Shown piece by piece: positions 19,841-63,932 of a DNA stretch of 64,000 nt. Location of the stretch: NCBI GenBank assembly GCA_031362805.1, contig JANLTG010000215.1, positions 13,522 to 77,521 on the forward strand, in the 5' to 3' direction. How positions within the stretch are numbered: position 1 is the stretch's first letter; each line of letters opens with the position of its first letter. The stretch is from a bacterium (lineage in GTDB: Bacteria > Verrucomicrobiota > Verrucomicrobiia > Limisphaerales > RI-55). The position numbers and the translations under genes were made by a program. The notes beneath the pieces were generated by a model. That model was not told the DNA's origin, searched no databases, and saw only the letters and a program-made list of their open reading frames with translations.

Positions 19841-19843
19841 AAA

Positions 19844-33375: not shown

Positions 33376-33382
33376 ACCACGC

Positions 33383-47031: not shown

Positions 47032-47201
47032 AATCTTTGTCGTGTAGGTTTGGGGCTCCTCTCACCAGCAGTGGCAGTGAACAGAACCGGCAGCAGGCTA
47101 GGGAAAGCCCGTGGCCGAAGGAAACAAAAAATCCAGCCTGCCGGCGGCCACGCCTGGCCATTTTGGTGACTTTTCTTGCCGGCCACGCTAGCCTGCCGCC
47201 G

Positions 47202-48018: not shown

Positions 48019-51000
48019 TCACGCGGCTTCGATGCCCACCTGTTCCATCAACTTGCCGAGCGCGCGGGCCGCCGAGGGGAGGACCAGGGTCAGCATTTCC
48101 AGGCGCTCGCCGACCGTCGCCACGCCTTCGGCGGCTCGAAAGTGGATGAGGCGACGATACCAGTTCAGGAACTCCTGACTGACCTCGGCTTCGTTGGCGG
48201 GCGGGCCGTCGATGCTGAATTCGCCCTGCATCAGCTCACAATGCAACCGGGCCGAGAGCGCCCGCGGATGGCCATTGAGTTGCCGCCAGAAAGGCAGCGC
48301 GTCCACGTATTGCTGGGTGAGCAACAAGGTTTCTCCCCGGGCGGCGATCAGCTCGCGATGGGTGGGATGATGCTGGATCGCCTCCCGGGTCCAATCGCGG
48401 GCAAACTCTATGAAATCAGGCTGGCTCAGTGCCAGCCGGGCGCCCAGCAGCCACGCGTCGATGAACGCACCGTTCTCAGCGACGAGTCCGTGCAAGAGCT
48501 GAAGCGCCGCGATCGGCTCGCCGTGCTCAATTTGGAAACGCGCGGCGTCCATCCGCAACGGAGCCAGCGTCGGATCTTCGTTCAAGGCAGTCGTGAATTC
48601 CTTCGCCGCCTCCGCGATGGCGCCCGACTTCCAAAGCGCGAGCGCGAGGCAGTGCCGGGGCGCACCGCCGAGGATGACCCGGTTGATGAGATAGAATGAG
48701 GGCTCGCCGCGCCGGTCGAGGCAGTTGCGGAACTGCTCAACGGCTTCCGCCCAGCGATGCAGTTCTTGATAGGCAAGGCCCAACGTGAAGTGCAACGAGG
48801 AGCTCAGCGGCTCACGGCTGGCCGCGCCGGAGGTCAGCACGGCGATGATCGCCTGCCAGCGATTGTGCTTCATCAGATGCGACGTGTATTGCGTCAGCAA
48901 CGATTCGCGCAGCTCGGGCGTGATTTCGTTGGCGGGTTTCTCGTTCAGCGCGGTGAAGGCCTCCGCGTAGCGCTGCATGCCTTCATCCATGCGCCCGGAC
49001 CGGATCAGCTCGAGACCCAGGTTCATGAGCAGGTTCGGTTCGCCCGGCAGTTCTTCGACGGCGAGTTCGAGCAGATGCAGATTGCGTGCAACCTTGTTGC
49101 GATCTTTCAACACCTCGGCGGTGTAGCCGTGATGGATCAACGGCGCCGTGCCGACACTCGATTCCATGCGCCACTCTTCGCGACGGACTTCAACGCTGCT
49201 AAACACCTGTTCGTGAACGCGGCTGATGTAGAACAATCCCGGCGCGTTGCGGAACAGCCGCGGGACGTACGTGCAGCCCTCGGCTTCTTTGCCGTGATCC
49301 ACGATGGGCAGGCGCCAGCTGATCGTATTCGGCACGGCGAGCGAGCGCATCAACTCCGCCTTGCCGGCTGCCGCCAGTTCTTCGTCCGCGTCCAGCACCA
49401 GCACCCAGTCGCCCGTGGCGTGCGCAAGGGCGGCATTGCGGGCCGCGCTGAAATCGTCGCACCAGGCGAACGAATGAACTTCGGCGCCGTGCGCCTTGGC
49501 GATCTCCACCGTGCGATCGGTCGAACCCGTGTCAACGACGACGATCTGGTGGGCGATGTCTTTGACGGAGGCCAGGCACTGACCGAGGAACTTCTCTTCG
49601 TTCTTCGCGATCAGACAGACGCTCAGCCGGGGCGCACCCGCCGGCGGCAACGGAGCCAGCGCGACTTGACTGGCTTGCTTGGTCACTGGATGCGCCTTAA
49701 GAAATTTTTGTGCTGGCGGCCAGTTTGGCGCCAGAGCCAGGGCGCGATCGACACACTCGCTCATGCGCCCGCGGTCGCCGAGATTCCAGGCGATCTCAGC
49801 GAGCAGCAGCAGTGCCTCGGGGTGGCACGGCCGGCTAGTCAGCGCGGCGTGCGCGGCGTTCCAGGCGGGAACGAACTTGTTCTGCTGGAGCAACGCGCGG
49901 GCGGAGCCGAGGAAACCCAGTCTTGCGACGGCCGGCAGTTCGATCCTCAGCGGTTGCTTCAAAGGTCGTTTGCCACTTGCGGGCAGCGCGGCCGGCTGGC
50001 AGCCCGCTAAACTCTGTGCCGCCGGCAGGCTGCCGGCAGCACATTGCCGGGCCAACCCGGCCAATCGGTTGGCGGTGTGATTCCAAGTCCAATTCTCGCG
50101 GGCATGAGCGCTGGCAAACTTGCCTTTGGCGCGAGCCTCATCGCGGTTCGCGACCACGTGCCGCATCAATTGCTGCAGCGTTGCAGCATCCGGTTCCAGC
50201 AACCAACCGTCGGCGACCAGCGGCATCCCGCTGATCTCACGTCCAAAGACCTTGCGCACTGACGGAATCTGATAGCCAGCCGCGGCCGGCACGAAATCAT
50301 CCGTTGAACCGCCTGCGGTGACGATCACCGGCCGACCACAAGCCATCGCTTCCAGCACGGGCAGCCCGAAGCCTTCGCCGCGATACGGATGCACGAGGCA
50401 GTCGCAAGCGGTGTAAAGTCCCGGCAACTCCTGCGGCGAGAGTTCCTGGTTGAGATAAAGGATCTCCGGCGCGTTAGGCTGCTTCTGAAGCTCGCGAATC
50501 TGTTGCTCCAGCGTCTGGCCGGCGTAAACGGACTGGCCGCCAAAATCTTTGATCACCAGGCAGACATCGTCTTTTGCCGTGAAGGATTCGGCGTAGGCCT
50601 TGAGCAACACGTCTGGGCCTTTGCGATAAATAGTGCCGCCAACAAAGAGGAACTTGAACGACTTGTTGGTCGCGAGTTTCAACGGCGTCACGTTCGGTTG
50701 GAAAACCTTGGGGTCAATCCCGTTGGGGAGGATGTGAACTTTCTCCGCCGGCACACCGCTGTCGATGTAGACTTGGCGGACGTAGTTCGAAGGCACCCAG
50801 AAGGCATCGACGTTCGCCGCCGCGATCACCCAATCCTTCGGCAGCGCGCCGGATTCCCAGGGCTGGATCACGGCGAGTTTGCCGGTCAACGGCCGGCTCC
50901 AGTCCGGCGGCCACGCGTGGCGGACGGTGAGCGGGGCATTGGGATTCGCTTTCGCTGCCAGCTTGCCGCGATACGATTGCAGCGGCTTCGCGAGCTTGCC

Positions 51001-54000
51001 GGTCACCGACGAAGTCTGCACCCGACGAATGGAGGCGCCGTTCTGGATGACCAGTGCGTCGGTCAGGACGCGGTTGATGTTCGAGAGGCTGCCATAGTCG
51101 AGGAATGAACCCAGCCAGTTGAGCTCGAGTTTGCCCCTGGCGGCGGAAGTCAGTGCGACGGGCGGTGTCGACTGGGGTGCCTCGGGGTCTGTCTGCCGAG
51201 CCACGTTCGCAGCCAGCAATTCCGGCAGCTTCATCCGGTTGGCGACATCGGCTAGCACCTGCCGGCGATCGCTATAATTGCCGGCCGTCCGAATCGCGTG
51301 CGCGAAGAGTCGGCGCACCTCGTCGAGTTCCCGCGCTTGATGCGCTTGGAGGATGGCCTCCATCAAATGGTCGAACTGATAGATGCGGCGATCGACCCGC
51401 GCATAGCGATCATCGTCGTGCATGACCGTTGCGAACACGTTGTAACGAATCGTGAAGCCGGCGGCTTTCAAGCGGCTCGCGTAATCGACATCTTCACGCT
51501 CGTAGAAGCCACGCGAATCGTCCCACTTCACCTGGTCGAGCACGGCGGTCTTGAGCACGCAGAGGCCGCCGGTGATGTAGGTGCTTGGATCGGCATCCCA
51601 ATAGTCGAGCAGCACGGAACCCTTGGTCCCACCCGTGGTGGCCCAGTCCCAGAACCGGCTGCCATCTGGATTCATAATGCGCACCGCCATCGCGTCGTAA
51701 CCTTCGCCGAAGCGTTGGAGACCGGCGGCAAAGCCAGGGTCAAAAACCAGATCGTCGTCGGCCACCACGAGGTGATCGTATTGCGCGTGGCGGCCGAGTT
51801 CGTTGCGCATCTTGCCCAACCGACCCGCGCGAGCCGCGTCGGCCAGGTCGACGCGCCGCACGGTGGCCGGTACGTTCGACACCTCGCCGCCCACCAGAAT
51901 CTCGTAAGCGGGCAGGTTCAATGCCTGGATGCTGGCGATCTGCCGGGCGAGTTTCTCGGCGCGCTTGCCAGCGGTGATAATGCAGAAGGAGTAACCTGCC
52001 TTGCGGGACGAATTGGAAACGGGCTGCGGTTGAAGCGCCTGTCGAACCCGCGCGATCTGAGCGGCCACCTGCGCCTCGACACACTTGCCCAACTCGTCCG
52101 GGCGCAAGCTGAGGAGCGCGAAGAACAAAGGTGTTTCACCTTCACGCTGGCCCGCCAGAAATCTGGAAACATCCGCTGAAGCAGCTGCCTCTGCGATGAA
52201 CGAAAGTGACTTCGCGATGGCCGAGTCGGGCACCGTGGATTCGCCGAACATGGGTGCTAGCAAGTGGCCCAGCGTGTGGGCTTCGGCTGTCGCCGTCGTG
52301 CGGAGCGATTCCGCTTCGGTGAGGGCTTCGACATGAGCGCGCTCGCATTGACGTTGCACGAGGCAACGGAACGCGGTCTTGGCGTCATGCGGATTCGCCC
52401 AGCGTTGCAGGCTCAAGCCGACGAGCAACAAGGTCTCCGCCGCGTCCGGTCGCAGTTCGGTGAGCTGCGCGCAAGCTTGGGCGCAGGGCTGGACCTGGCC
52501 GCTGCTGAACAGCTTCGCCGCGAGTTCGACCAGTTTGCCGAAATCATCCGTGGCCTTCGGTCCGGGCAGCGATTTCATCCGGCCGGTAATCACCTGAAGA
52601 ATGCCTGCGATGCGGACGTTCAAGCCAAGCTGGGCGCACGCCTCGCTGCGCCTGGCGAATTCCACCGCCGTCGGGAGGTCGCCGTACTTCACCATGAGCA
52701 ACGCAGCGATCAACCACGCGCGTGCCTCGCCAGATTTCTCCGGTGAACCAGCGGCATGGCAGAAAGGGAAGAGTGAGCGGAGTGAGTGTTTCTCCAGCAT
52801 CGCCTTCACCGCCTTCGCCTCGTACGAGGTGTTCACCTGCTTGCGCACCTTCGAGAGCGACTGCTCGTGCCGGCGATAAATGCCCACCTCCGTGTTCACA
52901 GACTTGAACGTCGCGACCGGTGTCAGGCGCGTCCAAAATTCGTAGTCGTGCGCGCGCGGGAAAGCGGGGTTATAGCCACCGGCCTGGGCGTAGCAGGACT
53001 TGCGGACCAGCGTGCAGACATTCGGAATGCGGTTCTCCACGACGGTGTCACCGAGAAGCGTCGCGCCCCAGCCGTGATAATCGCGGAAGACCCAGCGCTC
53101 GCAGATGTTGAGCTGCTCATCCGCCACCTGCAAGTGACCGTAGAGCACATCGACGTCGGGATGCTCACTTAACGTCCTGGCGTAAAGCTCGAGCGTCGTG
53201 GGCAGCAAGACATCGTCGGAATCCAGCCACACCAGAAACTCGCCGCGCGCCTCGGCGACACATCGATTGCGCGTCTCCGGACCGCCGCTGTGTTCTTTGA
53301 CAATGAACCGCACGCGGGGATCGGTGATGCGTTTCATCACCTCGGCCGTGCCGTCGGTGGAACCGTCGTCCACCACCACGAGCTCAAAGTTTTGATGCGT
53401 CTGGTTGAAGGCGCTCGCCAGGGTTTGCGCGATGAACTCCGCCCGGTTGTAAGTGGGCACGCAGATTGAAAAGAATTGTTCGCCGGTTTTCGTCGGCAAC
53501 GGCGCGGCGGCCTTCGCGGGTACTCGTGCGGCGTGGCGCGGCAGCAGTCGGTGACCTTCCGCCTTGGTCTCATTGCTGCGCGCAAAGGCGACGAGCTTGT
53601 TGTGAAACGTGTAGAGGTCCGGCTGCTTGAAGACCGAGTATTCGCGCATCAACCCGTGGCGCGAGCTCTTCGTCTCGAGTTTGTTGTCGGTCACCGCGTA
53701 GTCATGCTGGATGACCATGAACGGCCAGTACATCAGCACGAAATCACCGTGGACCTTGCTGATGCGGCACGAGAGATCGACACCTTCACCGCCAAAGAGC
53801 AGCGGGTCTTGTCCGCCCAGCTTGCGCCAGGTGTCGATGCGGAACGCGCTGTTGCCCTCCGTGTCGATGTCCGCCGGAAACGGCAGGTCACCCAGGTTGT
53901 AGTGCCGGGCGCGACTGTTGTGCGGGTGATCCGACTTCGGCAGCACCTTGCCGCGAAACGCATGAACATCGAATGCTTCAAAGCCCTCCAGCGCAGCGGC

Positions 54001-57000
54001 GAGATAGCCGGGTGCGGCGATGGCGTCGTCATCGATGAACACCGCGAAGTTCGAGCGGGCGAAATGCACGCCTATGTTGCGGCCCTCGGCGAGGATGGCG
54101 TTGAAGCCGACGCGGAGGTGCAGGATCGGCCGGCGCGCGAGCTCGGCGTGGATCGCCTCGTTGCCCCCGTTGTCCACCACGATGATCTCGTGCGGCGGGT
54201 TCGTCGAAGCGGCGAGCGAGTCCAAGCACTGGATCAACCCCTGGTTGATCTTGTAAGCGACGATGATGACCGACAATTGCGGCTTCGCCTCCGCACGGTG
54301 GTCCGTGCGCGGCAGCCTGTCGTAGTTGATCAACGACTGGTATTGGCGGCACTCCATTTGCGCGGCGGCAAACTGTCTTTCCTTCAAGAGATCGAAGCCG
54401 CGTTGCAGATGGGCGAACGCAGTCTGGTTGCCGGTTGGCGCGTCGCCGCCGGTCACCTCGGCCTGCGCAATCACTGCGCGCTTCTGGAACTTGGCGGACA
54501 AAATCCCGTAGCGCTTCTGGCCCTTGGCATGATCATAGGGCACCGCATCCGTCACGCCCTTGTAGAGACCGCCTTTGGCTGGCTTCTCAAATTGCTTCTG
54601 TTCGATGAGGTTGAATGCCCCGGCAAACTTCTCCGTGATATCCCACGAGAATTCAATCGGCTCACATGGCGTCGCCGAGTGATTCACATCCGTCAGCAGC
54701 AGGAACAGCCCGCCTGGTTTCACCACGCGCATGACCTCCCGAATGGTTTGCTCCAGATCCGCGACGTGGTCGAGCGAGTTGAACGACATCACGACGTCAA
54801 AGTGATCAGCGGGAAACGGAATCGACTCGGACGGCGCAGCGACGTAGCGCATCCGGTGCTGGTCAGCGCCCAGTTTCAAATACTGGCCGGCCAGCGGGTC
54901 GAGGCCGACGCGTTCGGCCGTCATGTTTGCCCATTCCAAACTGCCGCGCGGTCCGCAGCCGAGGTCGAGAATGCGTTTGCCGGTGAAAAATGCGTGATCC
55001 AAACCGAAGTGCGTCGTATAGTACTGTTCGTAATGCTTGTTGCTCAAAGTGCCTTCGCGCTCCTTCTGAAGTTTCCAATAGTCGAGCTCGTGCGTTTCCT
55101 TGAAAGCCACGTCGGGCGCGGCGCCGGATGCGGGAAAGCGGGGAGGGACAGCCTGCGGAGGAGTCGCGGTGGAGGTTGTGGCGGCGGGGAGAGTGGCCGC
55201 TTCGCCGCTGAGCGCGAGCTCCACCAACAAGCTGCTTGCTTCGGGGTGCTTGGGCACGAGCAAGAGCGCCTGCGAGAGATGACGGCGCGCGACTTCAATA
55301 TTGCCGACCGCGAGCTGCAAGCCCGCCACGGCCACCAGCAGGTCAGCATCGGTTTGATCTAGTTGTAGTGCCTGCTCCAGCAGCGTGATGGCTCCAGCCG
55401 CATTGCCTTGTCCAATCGCTTCCTGTCCGGACTTAAGCAGGCTCTCCAGTTGTTGAACGCGCTCGCGCACCGAGCTGGGTGCCGGTCCGAGATCAGCGAG
55501 GTTGCTCTGGGCAAGGGCGTTCTGTGGCTCAATTGCCAACACGCGCTCCAACGCGAGGCGGGTTGATTCCCGGTCACCCGTCTTGAAGAAGCACTTCGCG
55601 AGGATCAGCAACGATTCGATGTCTTCGGGGCGTTGCGCCAGCACGCGCGCGGCAGCCCTGGCTGCCTCGAGCCAGCGCCCGCCGTGGAGGCAGACGTTGG
55701 CGAACAGCTTCAGGGCAGCGACCCCATTGGGATCAATGGCCAAGGCTTCGCACGCCTGCGTTTCGATCGCGGCCAATGACGGTGAAGAGGCAGAGGCAGG
55801 GGCGGAGGCCGGGGCCGGGGCGACGGGAACGATCGGTTTCATAACTTCGGCCGCCTTGGGCGCGGGGGCAGTTTCCTGTTCGGTGAATGCGCAGATGGGC
55901 TGATGGCCTTGCTCGAGTTCAAACAGCTCCACGCCCTCGCGAATGACCGGGAACAATTTGATGTCCTTGATCGCCGGAGCCTGGCCGGTCGCGAGTGCGG
56001 CTTTGAGCACGTCGACGATTTCCTTCACCCGCTTGTGCGCAGCCACCGGCAGGTGGGGCAGGCACTGTTGGACGCCTGCCCACTGTCCTTTGCGAGCGAA
56101 GGCGACCGCGAGATTGGCCAGCACCTCATAGCGCGCATCGCGGTGGAATGCTTCCGTCAACACCTTGATCGCCAGCTCCAGCGGGGCGATGTGCGATTGC
56201 AGGAGCAGCGTGCCCAGGTCAAACAGCGCCATGGCCTCGGCCTTGGGCCGGTCGGCGCAACGTGCGAGCGTCGGGTAAAGTTTGGCGAGATCGAGGCCGC
56301 CCAAACGATCGATCGTGCGCTGGAACGCCAGGGCACAGGCGGTTTGAATCTGCGCCGCCTTGCGAGCGGTCATGCTGTCGTCGTGTCGGCGATAGTAGTA
56401 GAGAATCTCCGGCACTTGAACGGTGGCAAACTTCTCCCCGATGCGAAGCCACATCTCCCAGTCTTCCGCTCCTTCGAGGTCGGTGGCGTAGAGCCCCACG
56501 ACCTCCTGGCATTGCCGCCGGTAGAGAAATGCCGCGTTGCCCGGATTGCCGCGCAGCACATTGCGGAACGTCATGTCGGGGGCGGGGCGCACGTCGCTGA
56601 GCCGGCTTTGCCCGTCGATGGACGCAAATGCGCCGACGGCCAGGCCGGCGGCCGGATGCTGGTCGAGGGCAACAACGAGGGCTTCGAGGAAAATCGGGGC
56701 GCAATAATTGTCGGCCGAAGTCCAGGTGAGCAACTCACCGCGCGCGATTTGAAAACCGGCGTTCAACGCCCTGGGCAGGCGCTGGTTCGTTTGGTGGAGG
56801 ACGCGCACCCGCGGGTCTTTGAGCGTATCCAGATACTCCCGCGTGCCATCCGTCGAGCCGTCGTTGACGATGATGAGTTCGAAGTCATTGAAGGTCTGGG
56901 CCAGGATGCTTTCAATCGCTTGCGGCAGGAGCCGCAGGTGATTGTAAGTCGGGAGAACCACGGATGCGCGGGGTGTTCCGGCTGTTCCATTTTTCCGGAA

Positions 57001-57672
57001 TTGTCCCACGCCAACCTGCGAATAGCCCGAGGTGTAGTCCAGCTTGCTGACCGGGCCGTAGGCTGACTCGAGGTGCGACACGAACTCGCGCTCGCTGAAG
57101 CCCCGGGTGTGATGGGGGTCTTCCATCCAGCCGATCGGCGTCGAGACGATGAACCGGGTTTGGGGGTGAATGTAAGGCGCGAGCCGTTCCAGAAACGACT
57201 GCTCTTCCTCCGGGTAGATGTGCTCCAGCACCTCGCACAGCACCACCGTGTCAAAAGGTTTCATGGCCCCGAGATCGAGCGACTCAAGGGCCGTCAGCAC
57301 GGGGGTTACCTTGGGCAGCGCGAAACGGCGCAGCCCATCCAGGGCCTCGGCAAACGCGTCCACCGCGACGATTTCGGTCACCGCCGGCGCCGCGGCGAGC
57401 CAGCGGGTCACGTTGCCGATGCCGCAGCCGATTTCGAGGACCCGACCCGTGGCGTGGCGGACAGTGAATTGCAGGCGCTCAAAATAAGCGGGCGCCTCCT
57501 GCCGGGTTTCTTCCCACGAACAGCGCATGAGTTTCTCGTAGGTGGCGAGCTGCTTCTCGCCACCGTCCTGACCAACGCGCCACTGATTGCGCTGTGCCAG
57601 ACTCAGGCCGGGGCGCCGGATCGGCGAGCTGGGCGACGCGGGCTGCGGGGATGGGTTGGATGAAGTGTTCAT
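48019..57672 (-). CDS. Giant (about 3,217 aa) multidomain glycosyltransferase/methyltransferase/TPR protein
   Basis: Single uninterrupted ORF (track 48019-57876). ATG at 57672 lies 19 nt after the upstream stop. Motifs, in plus-strand coordinates: MT VLEIGCG 57421-57450; GT2 VVLPTYN 56941-56970 and FELIIVNDGSTDGT 56842-56889; TPR about 55500-55760; MT RILDLGCGP about 54943-54981; GT2 LSVIIVAYK 54241-54280 with FIDDDA 54022-54042; GT2 FSICVPTYN 53441-53475 with LDSDD 53211-53240; GT-A-like YSFCIITAGK 51961-52000 with VVADDD 51741-51770; GT4 GEGFGLPVLEAMACGRPVIV 50321-50389; GT2 LSVCLIAKNEEK 49591-49630 with LVLDADE 49381-49410; C-terminal TPR 48019 to about 49100. Confidence 0.85.
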   Translation of the reverse strand: MNTSSNPSPQPASPSSPIRRPGLSLAQRNQWRVGQDGGEKQLATYEKLMRCSWEETRQEAPAYFERLQFTVRHATGRVLEIGCGIGNVTRWLAAAPAVTEIVAVDAFAEALDGLRRFALPKVTPVLTALESLDLGAMKPFDTVVLCEVLEHIYPEEEQSFLERLAPYIHPQTRFIVSTPIGWMEDPHHTRGFSEREFVSHLESAYGPVSKLDYTSGYSQVGVGQFRKNGTAGTPRASVVLPTYNHLRLLPQAIESILAQTFNDFELIIVNDGSTDGTREYLDTLKDPRVRVLHQTNQRLPRALNAGFQIARGELLTWTSADNYCAPIFLEALVVALDQHPAAGLAVGAFASIDGQSRLSDVRPAPDMTFRNVLRGNPGNAAFLYRRQCQEVVGLYATDLEGAEDWEMWLRIGEKFATVQVPEILYYYRRHDDSMTARKAAQIQTACALAFQRTIDRLGGLDLAKLYPTLARCADRPKAEAMALFDLGTLLLQSHIAPLELAIKVLTEAFHRDARYEVLANLAVAFARKGQWAGVQQCLPHLPVAAHKRVKEIVDVLKAALATGQAPAIKDIKLFPVIREGVELFELEQGHQPICAFTEQETAPAPKAAEVMKPIVPVAPAPASAPASASSPSLAAIETQACEALAIDPNGVAALKLFANVCLHGGRWLEAARAAARVLAQRPEDIESLLILAKCFFKTGDRESTRLALERVLAIEPQNALAQSNLADLGPAPSSVRERVQQLESLLKSGQEAIGQGNAAGAITLLEQALQLDQTDADLLVAVAGLQLAVGNIEVARRHLSQALLLVPKHPEASSLLVELALSGEAATLPAATTSTATPPQAVPPRFPASGAAPDVAFKETHELDYWKLQKEREGTLSNKHYEQYYTTHFGLDHAFFTGKRILDLGCGPRGSLEWANMTAERVGLDPLAGQYLKLGADQHRMRYVAAPSESIPFPADHFDVVMSFNSLDHVADLEQTIREVMRVVKPGGLFLLLTDVNHSATPCEPIEFSWDITEKFAGAFNLIEQKQFEKPAKGGLYKGVTDAVPYDHAKGQKRYGILSAKFQKRAVIAQAEVTGGDAPTGNQTAFAHLQRGFDLLKERQFAAAQMECRQYQSLINYDRLPRTDHRAEAKPQLSVIIVAYKINQGLIQCLDSLAASTNPPHEIIVVDNGGNEAIHAELARRPILHLRVGFNAILAEGRNIGVHFARSNFAVFIDDDAIAAPGYLAAALEGFEAFDVHAFRGKVLPKSDHPHNSRARHYNLGDLPFPADIDTEGNSAFRIDTWRKLGGQDPLLFGGEGVDLSCRISKVHGDFVLMYWPFMVIQHDYAVTDNKLETKSSRHGLMREYSVFKQPDLYTFHNKLVAFARSNETKAEGHRLLPRHAARVPAKAAAPLPTKTGEQFFSICVPTYNRAEFIAQTLASAFNQTHQNFELVVVDDGSTDGTAEVMKRITDPRVRFIVKEHSGGPETRNRCVAEARGEFLVWLDSDDVLLPTTLELYARTLSEHPDVDVLYGHLQVADEQLNICERWVFRDYHGWGATLLGDTVVENRIPNVCTLVRKSCYAQAGGYNPAFPRAHDYEFWTRLTPVATFKSVNTEVGIYRRHEQSLSKVRKQVNTSYEAKAVKAMLEKHSLRSLFPFCHAAGSPEKSGEARAWLIAALLMVKYGDLPTAVEFARRSEACAQLGLNVRIAGILQVITGRMKSLPGPKATDDFGKLVELAAKLFSSGQVQPCAQACAQLTELRPDAAETLLLVGLSLQRWANPHDAKTAFRCLVQRQCERAHVEALTEAESLRTTATAEAHTLGHLLAPMFGESTVPDSAIAKSLSFIAEAAASADVSRFLAGQREGETPLFFALLSLRPDELGKCVEAQVAAQIARVRQALQPQPVSNSSRKAGYSFCIITAGKRAEKLARQIASIQALNLPAYEILVGGEVSNVPATVRRVDLADAARAGRLGKMRNELGRHAQYDHLVVADDDLVFDPGFAAGLQRFGEGYDAMAVRIMNPDGSRFWDWATTGGTKGSVLLDYWDADPSTYITGGLCVLKTAVLDQVKWDDSRGFYEREDVDYASRLKAAGFTIRYNVFATVMHDDDRYARVDRRIYQFDHLMEAILQAHQARELDEVRRLFAHAIRTAGNYSDRRQVLADVANRMKLPELLAANVARQTDPEAPQSTPPVALTSAARGKLELNWLGSFLDYGSLSNINRVLTDALVIQNGASIRRVQTSSVTGKLAKPLQSYRGKLAAKANPNAPLTVRHAWPPDWSRPLTGKLAVIQPWESGALPKDWVIAAANVDAFWVPSNYVRQVYIDSGVPAEKVHILPNGIDPKVFQPNVTPLKLATNKSFKFLFVGGTIYRKGPDVLLKAYAESFTAKDDVCLVIKDFGGQSVYAGQTLEQQIRELQKQPNAPEILYLNQELSPQELPGLYTACDCLVHPYRGEGFGLPVLEAMACGRPVIVTAGGSTDDFVPAAAGYQIPSVRKVFGREISGMPLVADGWLLEPDAATLQQLMRHVVANRDEARAKGKFASAHARENWTWNHTANRLAGLARQCAAGSLPAAQSLAGCQPAALPASGKRPLKQPLRIELPAVARLGFLGSARALLQQNKFVPAWNAAHAALTSRPCHPEALLLLAEIAWNLGDRGRMSECVDRALALAPNWPPAQKFLKAHPVTKQASQVALAPLPPAGAPRLSVCLIAKNEEKFLGQCLASVKDIAHQIVVVDTGSTDRTVEIAKAHGAEVHSFAWCDDFSAARNAALAHATGDWVLVLDADEELAAAGKAELMRSLAVPNTISWRLPIVDHGKEAEGCTYVPRLFRNAPGLFYISRVHEQVFSSVEVRREEWRMESSVGTAPLIHHGYTAEVLKDRNKVARNLHLLELAVEELPGEPNLLMNLGLELIRSGRMDEGMQRYAEAFTALNEKPANEITPELRESLLTQYTSHLMKHNRWQAIIAVLTSGAASREPLSSSLHFTLGLAYQELHRWAEAVEQFRNCLDRRGEPSFYLINRVILGGAPRHCLALALWKSGAIAEAAKEFTTALNEDPTLAPLRMDAARFQIEHGEPIAALQLLHGLVAENGAFIDAWLLGARLALSQPDFIEFARDWTREAIQHHPTHRELIAARGETLLLTQQYVDALPFWRQLNGHPRALSARLHCELMQGEFSIDGPPANEAEVSQEFLNWYRRLIHFRAAEGVATVGERLEMLTLVLPSAARALGKLMEQVGIEAA

Positions 57673-57691
57673 GGCGTCTTGGGGCGGGTGA

Positions 57692-60600
57692 CTACGGTTC
57701 GTTGAGGACGAGGCACTCGAAGGAGTCCTCCCACAGGAAGATGGTTTCGATGACCGGTGAATGGCTGTACCAGAGTTCCCGCAAGCGCGCGCTGAGCCGC
57801 TCGAATTGGGAACTCTCCGGTTCGCGATACCACTCACCGTCGTTGAGCAGAATGTCGAACGGGTTGGTTTCAGCACTGGCGAACCAACCGCGGCCAGGGG
57901 CGAACTCCGGGTGCAGTCCGAACGGGCGGTCCTCTTCGGTGCGCTTGTTGAGGAAGATCAATTTGCCCGCCCGCTCGGTGACGAGCCAGCGATGGTACGG
58001 GCGGCCAAAGGCAAACTCGGCGAAGGGCGCGGGCGTGATGATCGCGCCGGCCTTGGCGATGCGGACCATTTCCCGGCACGCGGTCGCGGGATCGTCGAGG
58101 TGCTCAAAGACGTGATGACTGTAGGCAAAGTCGAACTCCTTGTCGCGGAACGGGAGCGGGCCGTCGATGCGGGCGTTGACAAAGCGAATGCCGCGGCGCG
58201 CGAAGGCTGCCACATCGATCGTGGGTCCATGGCCAAGGGCGCGCTCGGCGGGAGCGACATGTAAATCGACGGCGACGGTAGCGCCTGCCACCGGATTATT
58301 GCCACAACCGAGATCGACGATCGCCTTGCTCGCGCGCAGTCGCGCCTGCAGCAATTGATGACGCGCGTGCGGCTGCGGTTTCGCCGGCTTGGCCGGCCGG
58401 GCCGGTGAGTTGCGTCGGGCGTTGGGGGTGGCCTGCTTGCCGAGCAGGACTTCGTACATCGACGCTTCCAACGAATCGACGTCCTTGCGTTCAAAACGTC
58501 GCACTGAGTCCCGGGCTTTCAGCGTCAAACGGGCGCGGAGCAACGTATCGGTGCAGGCGAGGTTGATCGCGGCGGCGAGCGTCGCGGGATGCTCCAGCTC
58601 CTTGACGAGCAATCCATTTTCGTGGTGACGAACAACCTCATTCATCGGCGCGAGATCGGACGTGATCACCAGCGCTTCACAGGCCAGGGCCTCAATGAAC
58701 ACGATGCCAAAGCCTTCCTGTCGGCTGGGGGTGCAGAAGCAATCGCAGAAGCTGTAGTACTCGGGCAGCTCCCCGCTGGGTACGCTCTCGATAAAGTGGC
58801 AGCGGGCGCTCACGCCCAGCTCCTTCGCGAGCTGCGCATAGGGGCGCACGTCGCCCCGGCCCACGGCGATCACCGAGTAATCAGCCCCCAACAACGGCAG
58901 AGTCCGGATCACCGTATCGAGGTTTTTTTCGGCACTCTTCCGGCCCACGTGGAGAATCCGGTGCTTGCCGGGAAAACGTTGTTCAAATGCGGCGCGTCGT
59001 TGCGGAGCCTCGATCCGGCGGAACACCTCGAAGTCCACCCGGTTGGGAAGGGTGACAATTTGCGATTCAGCGACGCCGCGTGCCACCACCAACCGGCGGA
59101 CGACGTCGCTGACGGCGATGACCTGGTCGGCTTGGCGAATGGAATCATGCAACCAATCCGCACGTTGGTCGTGGACGGAGACGATCACCGGAACTCCGGG
59201 GACTTTTGCCGCGGTGGCAAAGTCGCAGGCCCAATAGCCGCCATAGGCGCGCACCACGTCGATGTTGAGCTCGCGGATTCGAGCCGCCAGTTCCCCTTCG
59301 GTGGTGGGGATGACCTGCATGCCGTGGGCGCAGCGGGCCACCGACTCCTTCGGTGACAGGCAGTAGACTTCATCAAAGCAGCCGGCGGGATTGTAGTAGC
59401 CCTTCAGCCAGCTCGCATAGCCCGCGCGTTCGTACGCTTCCAGCGGATCGCTCGGCACCACCGCCAGCCGGCGCGGCTCACGAACCTTGCCCGTCGTTCC
59501 CAGCAGGTAGCCTTGATCCAGTTGTTGCAACTGGGGCGCGGGCAGGTGCCGCAGAAAGCCATCGAGCTTTTGGCGCAGCGGTGCCAACTCGGCCGAGTCG
59601 AGGAAGTTGAGCGAATGCAACGGCCCGACCGTGAACTCCCGCACCGACTTCAATCCGGCCCGCGCGAACAGCTGGGCCAGCGAGTGCTTGGGATCTTCAT
59701 AGCCGTATTTCCACCGGCCGCCCTGCTCCTGATCGGACTTGCCAATCCGGTAGGCCAGCGACCGCGCGTTGGGCACCAGGGAGAAAACTTGCTTGCGGGC
59801 AACGCGGCGGGATTCGCTCAGGATATGCACGATTTCGTCGTCGCTAAAATGTTCCAGCACGCCGCTGCTCCAGACGAAATCCACGGTGCCGTTGCCCAGC
59901 GGCAGAGGTTGGCGAAGGTCAACACAGTGCGTCGGCGGCGGTTCGAGTCCCAGCTCGCGGAAGACCGCCAGGCCGAAGTCGAGACAGGGCTGGCTGTAGT
60001 CGAGCAGGACGATCTTGCGCCCTTGCAGCGCCAGCCAGGCGGACATCGCGGCCGTGCCGCTGCCTTGTTCCAGCACCACATCGCCGGGTTGAGTCAGCTC
60101 GAGCACCGGCTTTACCCATTCGGGGACGTTGCCTTTGCGCACGCGGGCGGCGATCTCGCCGGGAGTCGCCCCCGCAGTGATGGCTTCATGCCACTCCTCC
60201 GAGTCCAAGGCGCGCGTCGTTCCCGCCGCCCGCTTTGCGCCTGGGCGCGGTTGCGCATTTTCTTCCGTAACAAGCTTCTCGCGGGACACCGGCGCAACGG
60301 CGGGTGCGGCGGACACCGGCTCGCTGGTTGGCGATGTCTTGTGGCCATGCCAGGCGACGAACAGGCCGTCGGCCGGCTTCTTATCATAGGCCACGAATTT
60401 CCATTCCGCTGCGCCACAGAGGGCGCGAAGCTGCGCGGTCAAAGGCTCGGGCTTGAACCATTTTTCCCAGGCCGGCGTCTTGAACGCACCCCAACGTTCC
60501 GCGTTCTTGTCGATCACGACCAGGTGTCCGCCGGGCTTGAGCAGGCGGTTCATTTCCCGCAAAGCGGCGGCCTCGCTCTGGGCGTGTTCCAGAGCCTCCA

Positions 60601-61795
60601 CGCAATAGAGCACGTCAAACGAGGCGTCCGGCCAGGGCAGTTGCAGCATGCTGCCGAGCCGCGTGGGAATGCCCGGCGGCACGGACTTCAATAGCTCGGC
60701 GGAGATGTCCACGCCGCTGATCAGGGCGCGCGGGAACCGCTGGCGGAGGGACGCGGCGAAACGGCCCTTGCCGCACCCCACATCCAAAACGGTGCGCCCG
60801 TTCAGATCGCCGGCAAATTCACTGATCGCCCGGAGTCGCCCATCTTCGGCGTTGATCTGGGTGGGAAAGACCGCGTGTTCGGCGTCGAAGAACTGCGTGA
60901 CGCGCGCGTTGCACGCGTCGATGTAGAACTTGACCGCCCAGCTGAGTTCCGCTGCCGGGAAGTAGGTGGCGGCCACGCCATAGCTGCCGAAGAAGCCCCC
61001 CGAGGGATTCATGCACTTCTCGGCAAACGCCAGCGTCCGATCCGCCCGGGCGCGATCCCCGAGTTTGTACCAAACGCTGGCCGCCTGGATCTGCCCCGGG
61101 GCGCAAAGCCAGGGGGCATCAAAGAAACCGGGCAAGGCACCGTTGTCCTGCTGGTAGCGAGCGAGCTGATCCATGCCCTGCTTCGCGAGTTCGCATTCAC
61201 CCAGGTCAAACAAGGCTTCCTGGATGTAACAGAACAAGTGAGTCAACATGTGACTCTGTTCAAAATTCGTGAGCTCAATGTTCTCGAGGTACCACCGTTT
61301 GCTCCGGGTTACGAAGTCGAGATAACGCGGCTCACCGAGTTGTTTGCCGGCCCGTTGCAGCGGCCACAGCGCGTAGAGATGCACGCCTTCGCTGACACTG
61401 CCGCGCTTGCCCATGCCCCAGGCACCGCCGTTCGGAACGAGGAGGCGGCCCGTGGCCGGATCGGCCGATTGAATCAACCAATCACACGCCCGGCGCAGGG
61501 GCTTTTCGAGCTCTGGGCGGGTCGGCAATAGTTCGACCCAGCCACGAATCACCTGGCCGGTGTCAAAGGCATAGGGCGCCTTGCCGTCGGGATCCAGAAA
61601 CGAGCCGTCCGGCTGTTGGATCGCACACAGGTGATCCGCGTATTGATTCGCGAGCGGCCGCTCCCCGATGGAGAGCAATGTGGGTATGAAGTAGCCGGTG
61701 ACCTCCGGGTAACAAATGCGCTTCCGGCTATGTACCATGATGCCGCCGTCTTGAAGGGTGTGGCGTTTGATCCACTTGATTGCCTGGTCGATCAT
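57692..61795 (-). CDS. Large (1,367 aa) multidomain protein: prenyltransferase/terpene-cyclase-like alpha/alpha toroid, three SAM-methyltransferase domains and a GT4 glycosyltransferase
   Basis: The N-terminus has QQPDGSF (about 61601-61620), QQDNGALPGF and NPSGGFFGSYG repeats. MT motif I: VLDVGCGKGR 60761-60796, VVLEQGSGTAAMS 60041-60085, IVDLGCGNNP 58281-58325. GT4 motif QEGFGIVFIEALACEALVITSD 58661-58726. ATGA overlap with the upstream epimerase gene. Confidence 0.85.
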   Translation of the reverse strand: MIDQAIKWIKRHTLQDGGIMVHSRKRICYPEVTGYFIPTLLSIGERPLANQYADHLCAIQQPDGSFLDPDGKAPYAFDTGQVIRGWVELLPTRPELEKPLRRACDWLIQSADPATGRLLVPNGGAWGMGKRGSVSEGVHLYALWPLQRAGKQLGEPRYLDFVTRSKRWYLENIELTNFEQSHMLTHLFCYIQEALFDLGECELAKQGMDQLARYQQDNGALPGFFDAPWLCAPGQIQAASVWYKLGDRARADRTLAFAEKCMNPSGGFFGSYGVAATYFPAAELSWAVKFYIDACNARVTQFFDAEHAVFPTQINAEDGRLRAISEFAGDLNGRTVLDVGCGKGRFAASLRQRFPRALISGVDISAELLKSVPPGIPTRLGSMLQLPWPDASFDVLYCVEALEHAQSEAAALREMNRLLKPGGHLVVIDKNAERWGAFKTPAWEKWFKPEPLTAQLRALCGAAEWKFVAYDKKPADGLFVAWHGHKTSPTSEPVSAAPAVAPVSREKLVTEENAQPRPGAKRAAGTTRALDSEEWHEAITAGATPGEIAARVRKGNVPEWVKPVLELTQPGDVVLEQGSGTAAMSAWLALQGRKIVLLDYSQPCLDFGLAVFRELGLEPPPTHCVDLRQPLPLGNGTVDFVWSSGVLEHFSDDEIVHILSESRRVARKQVFSLVPNARSLAYRIGKSDQEQGGRWKYGYEDPKHSLAQLFARAGLKSVREFTVGPLHSLNFLDSAELAPLRQKLDGFLRHLPAPQLQQLDQGYLLGTTGKVREPRRLAVVPSDPLEAYERAGYASWLKGYYNPAGCFDEVYCLSPKESVARCAHGMQVIPTTEGELAARIRELNIDVVRAYGGYWACDFATAAKVPGVPVIVSVHDQRADWLHDSIRQADQVIAVSDVVRRLVVARGVAESQIVTLPNRVDFEVFRRIEAPQRRAAFEQRFPGKHRILHVGRKSAEKNLDTVIRTLPLLGADYSVIAVGRGDVRPYAQLAKELGVSARCHFIESVPSGELPEYYSFCDCFCTPSRQEGFGIVFIEALACEALVITSDLAPMNEVVRHHENGLLVKELEHPATLAAAINLACTDTLLRARLTLKARDSVRRFERKDVDSLEASMYEVLLGKQATPNARRNSPARPAKPAKPQPHARHQLLQARLRASKAIVDLGCGNNPVAGATVAVDLHVAPAERALGHGPTIDVAAFARRGIRFVNARIDGPLPFRDKEFDFAYSHHVFEHLDDPATACREMVRIAKAGAIITPAPFAEFAFGRPYHRWLVTERAGKLIFLNKRTEEDRPFGLHPEFAPGRGWFASAETNPFDILLNDGEWYREPESSQFERLSARLRELWYSHSPVIETIFLWEDSFECLVLNEP

Positions 61796-62970
61796 GGGCG
61801 GGTGAGTTCGGGTTGGGGATGCAACTTGAAATGGGGTTTGGAACTTCCCAGCAGCAGTCGGCGGGCGATGCGCTGCGCGGCCCGGCCGTCGCCAAACGGA
61901 CTGGCGGGCCGGCTCATGGCGGCGTGCAGATCGTCGTTGAGCAACAGCGACTCCACCACGGCGGCGATCACCCCGGCGTCCGTGCCGACGAGTTGCGCCA
62001 TGCCGGCCTCGACGGCTTCGGGACGTTCGGTCTTTTCGCGGAGCACCAAGACCGGCACGCCGAGGCTGGGTGCTTCTTCCTGCAGCCCGCCCGAATCAGT
62101 CATGACGAGCCAGCACTGCTTCAGGAGATGAATCATCTCGAGATACGGCAGCGGCTCGATGAGGTGAACGTTGGAAAGCTGTTGCAGGTAAGCTCCAGCC
62201 ACTTTCTGCACCGCCGGGTTGGGGTGAACCGGGAATACAAATTCGATGCGCCCCTCATGGCGCCGGGCCAGTCGCGCCACTGCGGAAAGCACCCGATCCA
62301 ACGGTTTTCCGTGATTCTCGCGCCGGTGGCAGGTCAGGAGGATGAGCTTGCGGGCCGGGTTTAGACGGGCCAGGAGATCGGGCAGGGGACCGGCGGAAGA
62401 AACGAGTTGTCGCGTGGCCCATTGCAACGTGTCCACCACGGTATTGCCGGTGAACTCGATCGCCTCCTCGGCGATGCGCTCGTCGAGCAGATTCTGGCGG
62501 GCCGAGGCGGTGGGCGCGAAATGAACATCCGCCACCTGCGTAACCAGGCGGCGGTTGATCTCTTCCGGAAAGGGTTGCTGCCGGTCGCCCGTGCGGAGGC
62601 CGGCCTCCACGTGGGCGACCTTCGCCTTGGCGTAAAATGCGGCGAGGGCGGCGGCGAGCGTGGTGGTGGTATCGCCCTGGACGAGCACCCAGTCCGGGGC
62701 TTTCGTCTGCCACAAGATGCCGAGCTTCTCGATGAGTGCGGCCAGCACCTCGGTCGGTCGCTGGCCCGGCTTCATGATCGCCAGGTCGAGATCGGGTCGG
62801 AGGTCGAACAGCTCGACCAGCGGCGCAATCATTTCCCGATGTTGCCCGGTCAGGCAGACCGTGACCTGGCAGTGCTCGGGGTGGCGGCGGAGTTCCTGGA
62901 TGACCGGAGCCAGTTTGATGGCTTCCGGGCGGGTTCCCAGAACGCACCAGATATTTTGCCGGGTGGGCAT
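61792..62970 (-). CDS. wecB: UDP-N-acetylglucosamine 2-epimerase (WecB/NeuC family; hydrolysing versus non-hydrolysing type not resolved)
   Basis: 392 aa. VLGTRPEAIKLAPV, VQGDTTT, HVEAGLRT, TDSGGLQEEAPSLGVPVLVLRE motifs. Confidence 0.85.
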   Translation of the reverse strand: MPTRQNIWCVLGTRPEAIKLAPVIQELRRHPEHCQVTVCLTGQHREMIAPLVELFDLRPDLDLAIMKPGQRPTEVLAALIEKLGILWQTKAPDWVLVQGDTTTTLAAALAAFYAKAKVAHVEAGLRTGDRQQPFPEEINRRLVTQVADVHFAPTASARQNLLDERIAEEAIEFTGNTVVDTLQWATRQLVSSAGPLPDLLARLNPARKLILLTCHRRENHGKPLDRVLSAVARLARRHEGRIEFVFPVHPNPAVQKVAGAYLQQLSNVHLIEPLPYLEMIHLLKQCWLVMTDSGGLQEEAPSLGVPVLVLREKTERPEAVEAGMAQLVGTDAGVIAAVVESLLLNDDLHAAMSRPASPFGDGRAAQRIARRLLLGSSKPHFKLHPQPELTRP

Positions 62971-63122
62971 GGCGACCTCATCTTCCTTGACGGGTGCAAC
63001 CGGTGTTCCCTTTTCCTGCGCTGCTGCTGGCGGGCGGTGGCCGCAGGGCGGTCGGGCCGGGCCCGAAAGTTTAGCGGTGCGGCCGCTGGCTCAGCGGAAA
63101 AGCGGGACGTGCCGGCGCGCCG

Positions 63123-63932
63123 TTATTGGAGCAACCGGAGCACGCTTTGCGGGAGCTGGTTCGCCTGCGCGAGCATCGCGGTGCCAGATTGCACGAGGAT
63201 GTTGTAGCGGGCGTACTGTGTGGATTCGTCCGCGACATCGACGTCTTGAATGACGGAGCTGGCGGCAGAGAGATTTTCGCGGCTGACCATGAGCTGCTCG
63301 GAGGTGAAGTTCAAACGGCTCTGGTAGGCGCCGATGTTGGCGCGGTCCGAGGCGAGCTGCGTGATCGCAGCCTTGACGCTGTTCAGCGCGGCCACGGCGG
63401 CGGCCGTCGTGGAGATCACCGTCGTGTTCGCCGTGGCGTTGGCGTATTGGGAGATGGTCAGGTCGATGCCGTTCATCGTGAACGTCCCGCCTTCGGAATC
63501 GATGGTCACGTTGAGCGGGGTGACGGAGAACAGGCTGACGCCGTTGAACTCGCGGGCGGAGGTGTTCGTCACGTAGCCCTGCAGCTGGGTGAACTCAGAA
63601 TTGTAAAGCGCGCGGTCCGCGTCGGACTTGGTGACGTCCTGCGCGAGGATCGCCAGTTCGCTCATGCGATCGTAGGCCTTGGCGACCTTCTTCAGGTAGC
63701 CGTCCTGCGTCTGCGTGAAGGAGATGGCGTTGCCCACGTTGGACTTCGCGGCGGCGAGGCGCTTGATCTGCGCGTCGAGCCGCGAGGCCACCGCGAGGCC
63801 GGCGGCGTCGTCGGCGGGGTTGACGATTTTGGAGCCGCTGCTCAAGCGCGAAAGCGACTTGCTCAGCATGTCCGTGCTGGTTTGCAGGTTGGAGGCGGCG
63901 GCCTGGGCCTGCGTATTTGTATTGATGACCAT
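63123..63932 (-). CDS. fliC: Flagellin (short, D0/D1-only type)
   Basis: 269 aa. N-terminus MVINTNTQAQAAASNLQTSTDMLSKSLSRLSSGSKIVNPADDAAGLAVASRL and C-terminus LAQANQLPQSVLRLLQ are canonical flagellin termini. Confidence 0.95.
   Translation of the reverse strand: MVINTNTQAQAAASNLQTSTDMLSKSLSRLSSGSKIVNPADDAAGLAVASRLDAQIKRLAAAKSNVGNAISFTQTQDGYLKKVAKAYDRMSELAILAQDVTKSDADRALYNSEFTQLQGYVTNTSAREFNGVSLFSVTPLNVTIDSEGGTFTMNGIDLTISQYANATANTTVISTTAAAVAALNSVKAAITQLASDRANIGAYQSRLNFTSEQLMVSRENLSAASSVIQDVDVADESTQYARYNILVQSGTAMLAQANQLPQSVLRLLQ

Follow-up and report, generated by a model that had tools for sequence, protein, structure and literature searches.

Introduction

Flagellin glycosylation is well known, but the systems examined so far consist of many small genes, and the work has dealt mostly with single or sialic-acid-like sugars. 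Both flagellin glycosylation islands and flagellin glycosyltransferases that combine a glycosyltransferase (GT) domain with tetratricopeptide repeats (TPRs) are established (PMC7591256, PMC9638930, PMC13317340, PMC5109656): GmaR, which has a TPR domain after its GT domain, puts O-linked N-acetylglucosamine (O-GlcNAc) on Listeria flagellin (PMC9638930), and GT plus TPR proteins of flagellar loci are treated as flagellin glycosyltransferases (PMC13317340; PMC7591256). Here, we analyze a locus at positions 48019-63932 of a 64,000-nt stretch of contig JANLTG010000215.1 (the window, to whose positions the coordinates of the locus refer), which belongs to an uncultured member of the Verrucomicrobiota from soil or water and in which two giant fusion proteins, encoded by open reading frames (ORFs) that we call ORF-A and ORF-B, come right after a flagellin gene. 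We conclude that the locus is probably a flagellin glycosylation island whose enzymes are fused to an extreme degree. Giant fused proteins of GT and methyltransferase (MT) modules in flagellar loci have no description in the searchable literature. A study of flagellin glycosylation in Paenibacillus alvei reportedly describes a multi-GT-domain TPR enzyme.

Among the described systems, GmaR shares with ORF-B a homologous family 2 GT (GT2), the order of GT and then TPR, a gene linked to flagellar genes and flagellin as the substrate (here the proposed one). However, GmaR is a 637-aa protein with one GT, which adds a single GlcNAc and also serves as an anti-repressor of MogR, whereas the GmaR-like anchor of ORF-B forms the C-terminal tenth of a system with 12 modules and 4,584 aa in two proteins; the anchor has no anti-repressor match beyond the first TPRs, and no mogR is evident in the scanned window ORFs. 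SunS and ThuS likewise combine a GT-A fold with helical repeats, act directly on a polypeptide and are the best fold match of the anchor, but they S-glycosylate Cys of small bacteriocin precursors with one catalytic domain and have no flagellar context. FlmG of Caulobacter and Maf of Campylobacter, Aeromonas, Shewanella and Clostridium resemble the proposed system in cytoplasmic flagellin glycosylation before export and in their flagellar loci, and recognize their substrate by TPR or a dedicated binding domain (PMC7591256; PMC4065374; PMC13317340). FlmG (596 aa) has TPR and then a GT-B fold, Maf has MAF_flag10, and both transfer nonulosonic acids, whereas in our locus no MAF_flag10 was found, the epimerase is of the WecB rather than the NeuC type, GT and MT modules are numerous, and the TPR and family 4 GT (GT4) of ORF-B do not stand in FlmG's adjacent TPR-then-GT-B order (PMC7591256).

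The islands of Pseudomonas, Clostridioides difficile type B, Geobacillus and Enterobacteriaceae are similarly variable, lie beside flagellin and contain GTs, sugar-nucleotide enzymes and MTs, and methylated sugars on flagellin are known (PMC5109656; PMC5207246, PMC5207245, PMC4875605); those islands, however, consist of many separate genes of ordinary size, in contrast to the two concatenated polypeptides found here. Fused GT modules with or without an MT, soluble or peripheral in the cytoplasm and building a defined glycan without a template, are seen in WbdA/WbdD and the Klebsiella O-polysaccharide modules, which include multi-domain fusions of GTs and MT terminators in ABC-transporter-dependent O-antigen synthesis (PMC3482155, PMC11231755). 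These proteins work on undecaprenyl-diphosphate-linked acceptors with Wzm/Wzt export, have far fewer modules and are unlinked to flagellin, whereas the 34 scanned window ORFs include no such export genes and no priming gene. Finally, the mycobacterial methylmannose polysaccharide system (ManT, MeT1, MeT3, MmpH) comprises one GT, two MTs and the MmpH hydrolase (PMC9883506), and its combination of a GT, sugar O-methyltransferases and an (alpha/alpha)6-barrel protein recalls our locus, but the similarity is at fold level only, its product is free in the cytoplasm and its genes are separate and non-flagellar.

Results

The flagellin-linked locus and the C-terminal anchor of ORF-B

The locus consists of flagellin, wecB epimerase, ORF-A and ORF-B, all four co-oriented on the minus strand in the ORF list. 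Its main elements are as follows.

63123-63932, minus strand: flagellin, 269 aa (Pfam Flagellin_N and Flagellin_C; NCBIfam flagellin)
62971-63122, minus strand: spacer of 152 nt between flagellin and epimerase (sequence)
61792-62970, minus strand: non-hydrolyzing UDP-GlcNAc 2-epimerase of the WecB type, 392 aa (Pfam Epimerase_2, 2e-108)
57692-61795, minus strand: ORF-A, 1,367 aa, soluble, in the order (alpha/alpha)6 barrel-MT-MT-GT4-MT (ORFs, Pfam, AlphaFold2)
48019-57672, minus strand: ORF-B, 3,217 aa, soluble, in the order MT-GT2-TPR-MT-GT2-GT2-helical-GT-A (divergent)-GT4-TPR-GT2 (GmaR-like)-TPR (ORFs, Pfam)
48022-49935, minus strand: C-terminal anchor of ORF-B, aa 2580-3217, a TPR-GT2 (GmaR/SunS-like, DADE)-TPR superhelix (PDB matches, AlphaFold2, Foldseek)

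In a phmmer search against the PDB, the best solved relative of the whole ORF-B was the GT domain of GmaR (22ao, E 1.8e-25), aligned to aa 2680-2869; the C-terminal module alone matched 22ao at E 1.8e-26 to 2.9e-27 over ~190 aa, and the alignment keeps the catalytic DADE (DxD), HEQ and HxGY motifs. The next relatives by sequence were the peptide S-glycosyltransferases SunS (7msp, 2e-19) and ThuS. The anchor comprises TPR (aa 2590-2660), GT2 (aa 2680-2895), TPR_2/TPR_19 (aa 2950-3080) and TPR or helical repeats to aa 3217, and the AlphaFold2 model of ORF-B 2580-3217 (mean predicted local distance difference test, pLDDT, 93.6) contains TPR helices and a GT-A fold together with a long superhelix of helical repeats, which is continuous after the GT-A fold, so that the GT-then-TPR order is that of GmaR. 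A Foldseek search with this model placed ThuS/SunS at the top (E 4e-15) and the OGT and SPINDLY TPR domains next. The top-ranked relatives by both methods are all polypeptide-glycosylating enzymes and none makes polysaccharide. The direct modification of a protein substrate, proposed in the preliminary description of this DNA, is supported by the GmaR homology (E 3e-27, DxD kept) and by a fold like that of SunS/ThuS and of OGT-type TPRs. As to the GmaR anti-repressor domain, the sole match to 7x9r (GmaR 141-637) covers its residues 23-94; this domain is Listeria-specific and unneeded for glycosyl transfer.

The flagellin is short, without a D2/D3 insert, and 18 of the 60 residues of its central segment (aa 121-180) are Ser or Thr (30%); an alignment of seven relatives identifies this segment as the variable part of the protein. 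Its Ser/Thr content is an indirect hint that the flagellin may be glycosylated.

Gene neighborhoods of ORF-B homologues

The window edge lies 68 nt upstream of the flagellin start, and contigs with an identical flagellin place fliW and csrA directly upstream of it, on the same strand and just off the window. The order fliW-csrA-flagellin-epimerase-ORF-A-ORF-B was found in six independent assemblies. Moreover, when ORF-B homologues of 45-58% identity were looked up on long contigs, they stood beside fliW, csrA, flagellin, fliD or fliS in 8/9 cases. The arrangements included the following, in which "giant" denotes the ORF-B homologue.

L007: fliW-csrA-flagellin-TPR-pyruvyl transferase-giant
L009: fliW-csrA-flagellin-epimerase-barrel/MT-AsnB-DUF362-NTP transferase-sulfatase-giant
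L010: fliW-csrA/GT4-giant-TPR-flagellin-fliD-fliS
L012: fliS-fliD-flagellin / fliW-flagellin-giant (4,281 aa)
L013, a Sedimentisphaerales (Planctomycetota) metagenome-assembled genome (MAG): giant between flgK/flgL and fliD, with epimerase
L027: flgK-flgL-fliW-csrA-giant
L028: fliW-csrA-MT-GT4-MT-giant
L029: stand-alone TPR-GT2-TPR of 722 aa after fliW-csrA, with separate GT4/GT2 and GT2/GT2 genes ahead

L029 is the same system in an unfused state. A scan of genome contigs returned three close relatives, and in both of those with upstream DNA the homologues lie at flagellar genes and the flagellin is 91-93% identical; the seven other matches, from Bacteroidota, Pseudanabaena and Hyphomonadaceae, are generic GT2 proteins of 24-32% identity, uninformative on synteny. 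A scan of metagenomes with an alignment of the C-terminal module gave 25 loci with the full module, mostly in host ORFs of 1,700-3,500 aa. Seventeen of these were informative, their contigs showing 2 kb or more ahead of the host ORF, and in at least 11 of the 17 the fetched DNA held fliW, csrA, flagellin, flgK, fliD or fliS. This count is a lower bound, since the window itself would score negative with a 10-kb flank measured from the module. By a rough rather than a computed estimate, such proximity to these genes would be expected for ~1-2% of random loci. The look-ups, the metagenome loci and both close relatives thus bear out the synteny with flagellar genes; no pilin or other candidate substrate gene recurred in these neighborhoods.

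The csrA genes of these loci encode a normal CsrA of 74-119 aa, except in L010 (8569-9999) and, identically, in L011 and L032 (4018 onward), which represent one related lineage and where CsrA is fused in frame to a GT4 in one 476-aa ORF whose N-terminal ~58 aa are typical CsrA; the fusion is present in ENA, NCBI and JGI assemblies and would couple the translational regulator of flagellin physically to a glycosyltransferase. The accessory content of L007, L009 and L017 was varied (polysaccharide pyruvyl transferase, GT29 sialyltransferase-like, Methyltransf_24, DUF268, asparagine synthase, DUF362, NTP transferase, sulfatase), which suggests that relatives may carry pyruvylated, amidated or sulfated flagellar glycans.

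Domain composition of ORF-A and ORF-B

Pfam searches with both full-length proteins and with 17 overlapping segments, together with AlphaFold2 and sequence reading, gave the following modules, where SAM stands for S-adenosylmethionine.

60881-61795, minus strand: (alpha/alpha)6 barrel, ORF-A aa 1-305 (AlphaFold2 model)
60326-60838, minus strand: class I SAM methyltransferase 1, ORF-A aa 320-490, with the Pfam match at aa 323-447 (Methyltransf_11, 3e-22; Rossmann fold in AlphaFold2)
59645-60121, minus strand: SAM methyltransferase 2, ORF-A aa 559-717 (Methyltransf_25, 3.7e-11)
58511-59308, minus strand: GT4 (GT-B), ORF-A aa 830-1095 (Glycos_transf_1, 5.5e-33; Glyco_transf_4)
57983-58357, minus strand: SAM methyltransferase 3, ORF-A aa 1147-1271 (Methyltransf_11, 4.7e-12)
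57133-57489, minus strand: SAM methyltransferase, ORF-B aa 62-180 (Methyltransf_12, 6e-12)
56332-56964, minus strand: GT2 with PTYN motif, ORF-B aa 237-447 (Glycos_transf_2, 3.8e-32)
55213-55755, minus strand: TPR block 1, ORF-B aa 640-820 (TPR_19, 1.3e-17, and other TPR models)
54673-54990, minus strand: SAM methyltransferase, ORF-B aa 895-1000 (Methyltransf_11, 6.4e-17)
53683-54273, minus strand: GT2, ORF-B aa 1134-1330 (Glycos_transf_2, 8.5e-15)
52843-53469, minus strand: GT2 with PTYN motif, ORF-B aa 1402-1610 (Glycos_transf_2, 7.7e-32; chondroitin synthase 2z86, 8e-24)
52003-52695, minus strand: helical linker or scaffold without family match, ORF-B aa 1660-1890 (read from the sequence only)
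51403-51981, minus strand: divergent GT-A, ORF-B aa 1898-2090 (Glyco_tranf_2_3, 4.9e-10, 40 bits against a cutoff of 27)
50053-50850, minus strand: GT4 (GT-B), ORF-B aa 2275-2540 (Glycos_transf_1, 6e-21; GT4-conflict, 7e-13)

Together with the GT2 of the anchor, the verified catalytic modules of the two proteins number 12, comprising five MTs, two GT4s, four GT2s and one divergent GT-A. The domain searches thus confirmed the GT and MT classes of the preliminary description, its five MTs and two GT4s (in the segment-wise Pfam run) and its TPR or helical blocks, found as three TPR regions and one helical block in ORF-B. Its total of 13 did not hold: it had expected five GT2s and one divergent GT-A, and the divergent GT-A was recovered beside four clear GT2s, so that the GT-A modules number five instead of six. 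A thirteenth module was sought in ORF-B 1660-1960 to E <= 1 and in the rest of ORF-B to E <= 0.01, and nothing extra appeared. The divergent GT-A shows VVADDD and EDVDY motifs in its sequence, and the helical segment before it is kept together with its flanking modules in the homologues P0001-P0012. Recent internal duplication was rejected as well, self-BLAST giving only weak MT-MT and GT4-GT4 similarity (24-27%); judged by their sequences, the modules are old and divergent.

No hydrophobic segment resembling a transmembrane (TM) helix was found in ORF-A or ORF-B, and among the 34 scanned window ORFs there was no flippase, polymerase, ABC polysaccharide exporter or priming phosphoglycosyl transferase, the sole ABC system being a Liv-type amino-acid importer. 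The lack of export and priming genes in the unit was therefore borne out within these ORFs, such genes being possible elsewhere in the genome, and together with the lack of TM segments it supports the cytoplasmic location that had been proposed. Only GT, MT, TPR and barrel domains were recovered from the giants, and no carrier, tethering or condensation-type domain.

The epimerase scored 440 bits with the TIGR00236 wecB model (cutoff 210) and 69 bits with the NeuC model (cutoff 236), so that of the initial WecB/NeuC-type assignment the WecB part stood and the NeuC part did not. This points to UDP-N-acetylmannosamine (UDP-ManNAc) as the sugar nucleotide that the enzyme would be expected to supply. 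A sialic-acid-like route is unlikely, because the epimerase is WecB and not NeuC; a NeuC, sialic-acid or Maf route was rejected on the NeuC score below cutoff and on the absence of MAF_flag10 (PF01973) from the ORF-A matches, the listed best 25 of 33 ORF-B families and all segment scans.

The alpha/alpha toroid noticed earlier was recovered as an (alpha/alpha)6 barrel in an AlphaFold2 model of ORF-A 1-520, built with 44 homologues (pLDDT 92.6), where it is packed against the first methyltransferase. Its domain had no significant match in Pfam or among PDB sequences, and its best solved fold neighbors were MmpH (7qsj; template-modeling, TM, score 0.68, 16% identity) and a small squalene-hopene cyclase (8paj; TM score 0.66). 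An assignment as terpene cyclase or prenyltransferase was not upheld by sequence, the only match being a sub-threshold SQHop_cyclase_C (E 0.002, 17.5 bits, cutoff 26). As the fold search cannot tell an MmpH-like hydrolase from a small cyclase, the predicted role of the barrel is a lead only.

The PDB sequences nearest to methyltransferase 1 include the sugar O-methyltransferases RebM and AtmM, and PimA-like sequences are among those matched by the ORF-A GT4. Methyltransferase 2 gave a weak match (4.7e-13, 49 bits, curated cutoff 200) to the NCBIfam model of the oligosaccharide methyltransferase MftM, which no stretch of ORF-A passes alone. Similarly, the model of the mycofactocin glycosyltransferase MftF found its best stretch at ORF-B aa 1128-1324, the whole protein scoring 165 bits, below the cutoff of 280.

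The barrel plus MT unit (60326-61795) is also a widespread stand-alone protein of ~500 aa with 683 homologues. The stand-alone form occurs in Deltaproteobacteria, Nitrospiraceae, Planctomycetes, Armatimonadetes, Binatia and Ignavibacteriales, often adjoining Epimerase_2, asparagine-synthase-like, NTP-transferase and multi-GT2 genes. The label "malonyl-CoA O-methyltransferase" that some sources give it is probably wrong.

Family size and variability between strains

The C-terminal module is present in at least 2,943 cluster representatives (E <= 1e-30; 1.84 billion searched; clusters at 50% identity). The best 150 of these have a median length of 1,845 aa, 66 of them exceed 2,000 aa and the longest has 5,089 aa. 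Single-module (~600-750 aa) and two-GT (~900-1,100 aa) forms are also abundant, which places ORF-B at the long end of a fusion continuum around one anchor. The preliminary description had recognized no characterized enzyme with so many modules; the searchable literature holds no description of giant GT/MT fusions in flagellar loci, but ORF-B is not singular, given the number of representatives that carry the anchor. In 25/27 giant homologues the anchor stands at the extreme C-terminus and the N-terminal modules vary. The sharing is nested: TPR-GT2-TPR is found in nearly all homologues, the GT4 ahead of it in fewer and GT2-GT2-helical-GT-A in fewer still, the N-terminal MT/GT2/TPR/MT part of ORF-B being the most variable.

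Comparison with close strains located the start of this variability within the locus.

61840-61900, no strand: recombination breakpoint at ~61,850, within the final 16 codons of the epimerase gene (sliding identity)

L001, L002 and L003, which are mutually 99.6-99.9% identical, share with the window a 100% identical flagellin and an epimerase that is 99% identical over aa 1-376 only, and their DNA identity to the window falls from 98-100% on the flagellin side to 64-83% on the ORF-A side. ORF-A is 78% identical at the protein level and the start of ORF-B ~70% at the DNA level; DNA similarity ends at 56377 (ORF-B aa ~430) and the sequences are unalignable beyond. In L017 the flagellin is 93% identical, the downstream giants have 1,494 and 3,399 aa with Methyltransf_24, pyruvyl transferase and DUF268, and only the last 1,061 aa match ORF-B. 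Such a pattern is typical of a surface-glycan locus that recombines while the structural gene next to it is conserved.

The apparent lack of ORF-B in L003 despite its identical flagellin was ruled out, as L003 and L002 share 99.85% identity across 11.5 kb. The public reverse-strand gene calls over its ORF-B homologue (7313-11513) are a calling failure on a giant GC-rich ORF.

Junctions and other features of the window

The gene order, coordinates and junctions first noted for this locus agree with the ORF list and with direct reading of the junction sequence. wecB, ORF-A and ORF-B are tightly coupled: the epimerase stop overlaps the ATG of ORF-A by 4 nt as ATGA (61792-61795), and 19 nt (57673-57691) separate ORF-A from ORF-B, whose frame is open from 57876 to 48019 and yields 3,217 aa from the ATG at 57672. 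Analysis of promoters, terminators and RNA structure at the junctions was uninformative; the 152-nt spacer downstream of flagellin has no intrinsic terminator (scan) and no unusual structure (RNA fold z-score -0.07). The unit ends against a convergent gene outside the system, beyond which lie fructose-bisphosphate aldolase and then the Liv-type ABC importer.

47037-47945, plus strand: queE, radical-SAM (TIGR04349, 1.9e-76), downstream limit of the unit

A chemotaxis cluster lies in 32554-38108, with cheR (32554-33375), an HDOD/HD protein (33496-34749) and cheB (34746-35831), after which come the gene of a YbgF-like TPR protein and a gene resembling UDP-glucose 6-dehydrogenase (36810-38108); the product of the latter could feed uronic acids into glycans. 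A low-GC island at 18100-19900 (46-53% GC versus ~63% around, no tRNA nearby) is possibly foreign DNA; it holds minus-strand ORFs of 308 aa (18162-19088; no Pfam match) and 163 aa (19349-19840). Rfam matched the window only once and far from the locus, with the Acido-Lenti-1 small RNA motif (RF01687) at 2578-2622 on the plus strand (42.9 bits, above the gathering score), which overlaps the start of a 600-aa ORF (2604-4406) without Pfam or NCBIfam match.

Discussion

Our interpretation of the locus as a flagellin glycosylation island in fused form, which we hold to be probable, is based on the anchor, on the GTs that stand next to flagellin across relatives, on the combination of WecB with five MT domains and on the variability beside a conserved flagellin. 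It retains from the preliminary interpretation the link to flagellin, the direct cytoplasmic modification of a protein and the domain classes, and departs from it in the module count and in NeuC. Homology and synteny suggest that WecB would turn UDP-GlcNAc into UDP-ManNAc, with other donors coming from general metabolism, and that the C-terminal TPR superhelix would bind new flagellin in the cytoplasm while the C-terminal GT2 puts the first sugar on its Ser or Thr residues, presumably in the exposed central segment (aa ~120-180). More speculatively, the six other GTs (three GT2s, the divergent GT-A and the GT4 of ORF-B, and the GT4 of ORF-A) may extend this primer into a hetero-oligosaccharide with the substrate held nearby, the five class I SAM methyltransferases may methylate its sugars, and the ORF-A barrel may bind, measure or trim the glycan, before the modified flagellin would be exported by the flagellar type III system. 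In evolution, the anchor would be kept and the elongation and tailoring train swapped by recombination, which would give strain-specific glycans on an unchanged flagellin.

Several observations weigh against this interpretation. The organism is known only from metagenomes, and the searchable literature does not describe flagellin glycosylation in Verrucomicrobiota. The extending GT2 and GT4 modules resemble enzymes of exopolysaccharide (EPS), teichuronic-acid and colanic-acid synthesis at the family level, so that their acceptor cannot be read from the sequence, and a glycan made by seven GTs would need to pass through the narrow flagellar export channel. The spacer behind flagellin has no promoter match either, and co-transcription of flagellin with the downstream genes is predicted only. 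Additionally, 6/17 metagenome loci have no flagellar gene in the fetched DNA, where the flank is often too short; the giant of P0028 lies at a contig end beside a transposase with no flagellar gene visible; and in L015 and L016 the barrel-MT stands with epimerase, AsnB and NTP-transferase, with no flagellar gene within 10 kb.

The latter two loci would fit a different role, in which the giants make a non-protein glycan, either a lipid-linked surface polysaccharide or a free polymethylated polysaccharide of the cytoplasm, and lie beside flagellin through co-regulation or chance. The family-level matches of the GT2 and GT4 modules (EpsD, TuaG, WcaA, PgaC, PimA) point the same way, as does the best solved neighbor of the barrel, MmpH being the hydrolase of the methylmannose polysaccharide pathway, and TPR-containing multi-domain capsule polymerases exist (PMC5974469). 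We nevertheless regard such a role as improbable: the flagellar synteny extends over many loci in two phyla, conservation is highest in the module that resembles polypeptide glycosyltransferases of the GmaR/SunS type and not a polymerase, the window ORFs include no priming transferase, flippase, Wzy or Wzm/Wzt and the giants no TM segment, and the resemblance to MmpH is one of fold only. We give an equally small chance to a broader protein O-glycosylation machine for which flagellin would be one of several substrates, next to hook-associated proteins, pilins or other secreted proteins. Three separate TPR regions and a helical block could recruit several substrates, TPR-GT enzymes such as OGT, whose TPR domain is a fold match here, serve many, and a cyanobacterial TPR-glycosyltransferase that modifies pilin is known (PMC9306852), but the constant neighbors are fliW, csrA and flagellin, i.e., specifically the flagellin homeostasis module, and no candidate substrate gene other than flagellin recurs. 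Neither of these two explanations accounts for the synteny and for the homology of the anchor as well as a flagellin glycosylation island does.

That the giant ORFs are artefacts, whether through mis-assembly, frame-fused genes or decaying pseudogenes, is hardly credible. Metagenome assemblies can create chimaeras, and gene callers disagree in places, as in the reverse-strand calls of L003. However, the window and an independent assembly (L004) share 100% identity across 6.7 kb of the operon, which speaks directly against an assembly artefact, L001-L003 agree with one another, hundreds of unrelated assemblies contain unbroken ORFs of 1,700-5,089 aa that carry the C-terminal module, and the catalytic motifs of the giant ORFs are intact in sequence and alignment.

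Beyond the island itself, we speculate that the locus may be a template-free glycan assembly line anchored on flagellin, in which the anchor would clamp and prime the substrate and the GT and MT modules upstream of it would be arranged co-linearly with the sugars and methyl groups of the finished glycan; we consider this rather unlikely, although less so than the three rival explanations above. Since the giants contain no carrier domain, "assembly line" is an analogy only. Were the co-linear arrangement true, swaps of module trains between strains with identical flagellin would reprogram the flagellar glycan, and the family, with its thousands of members of up to 5,089 aa, would amount to a natural code for protein glycosylation that can be both read and engineered.

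With seven GT and five MT modules in two polypeptides behind a flagellin gene, a whole pathway appears to be written in two genes. The fused form and the natural swaps on an identical flagellin make it testable whether domain order predicts glycan structure, and a soluble, substrate-anchored multi-GT enzyme would suit cytoplasmic protein glyco-engineering as a chassis. The family is large and uncharacterized, with members named from Verrucomicrobiota MAGs, and thus marks a blind spot in bacterial glycobiology.

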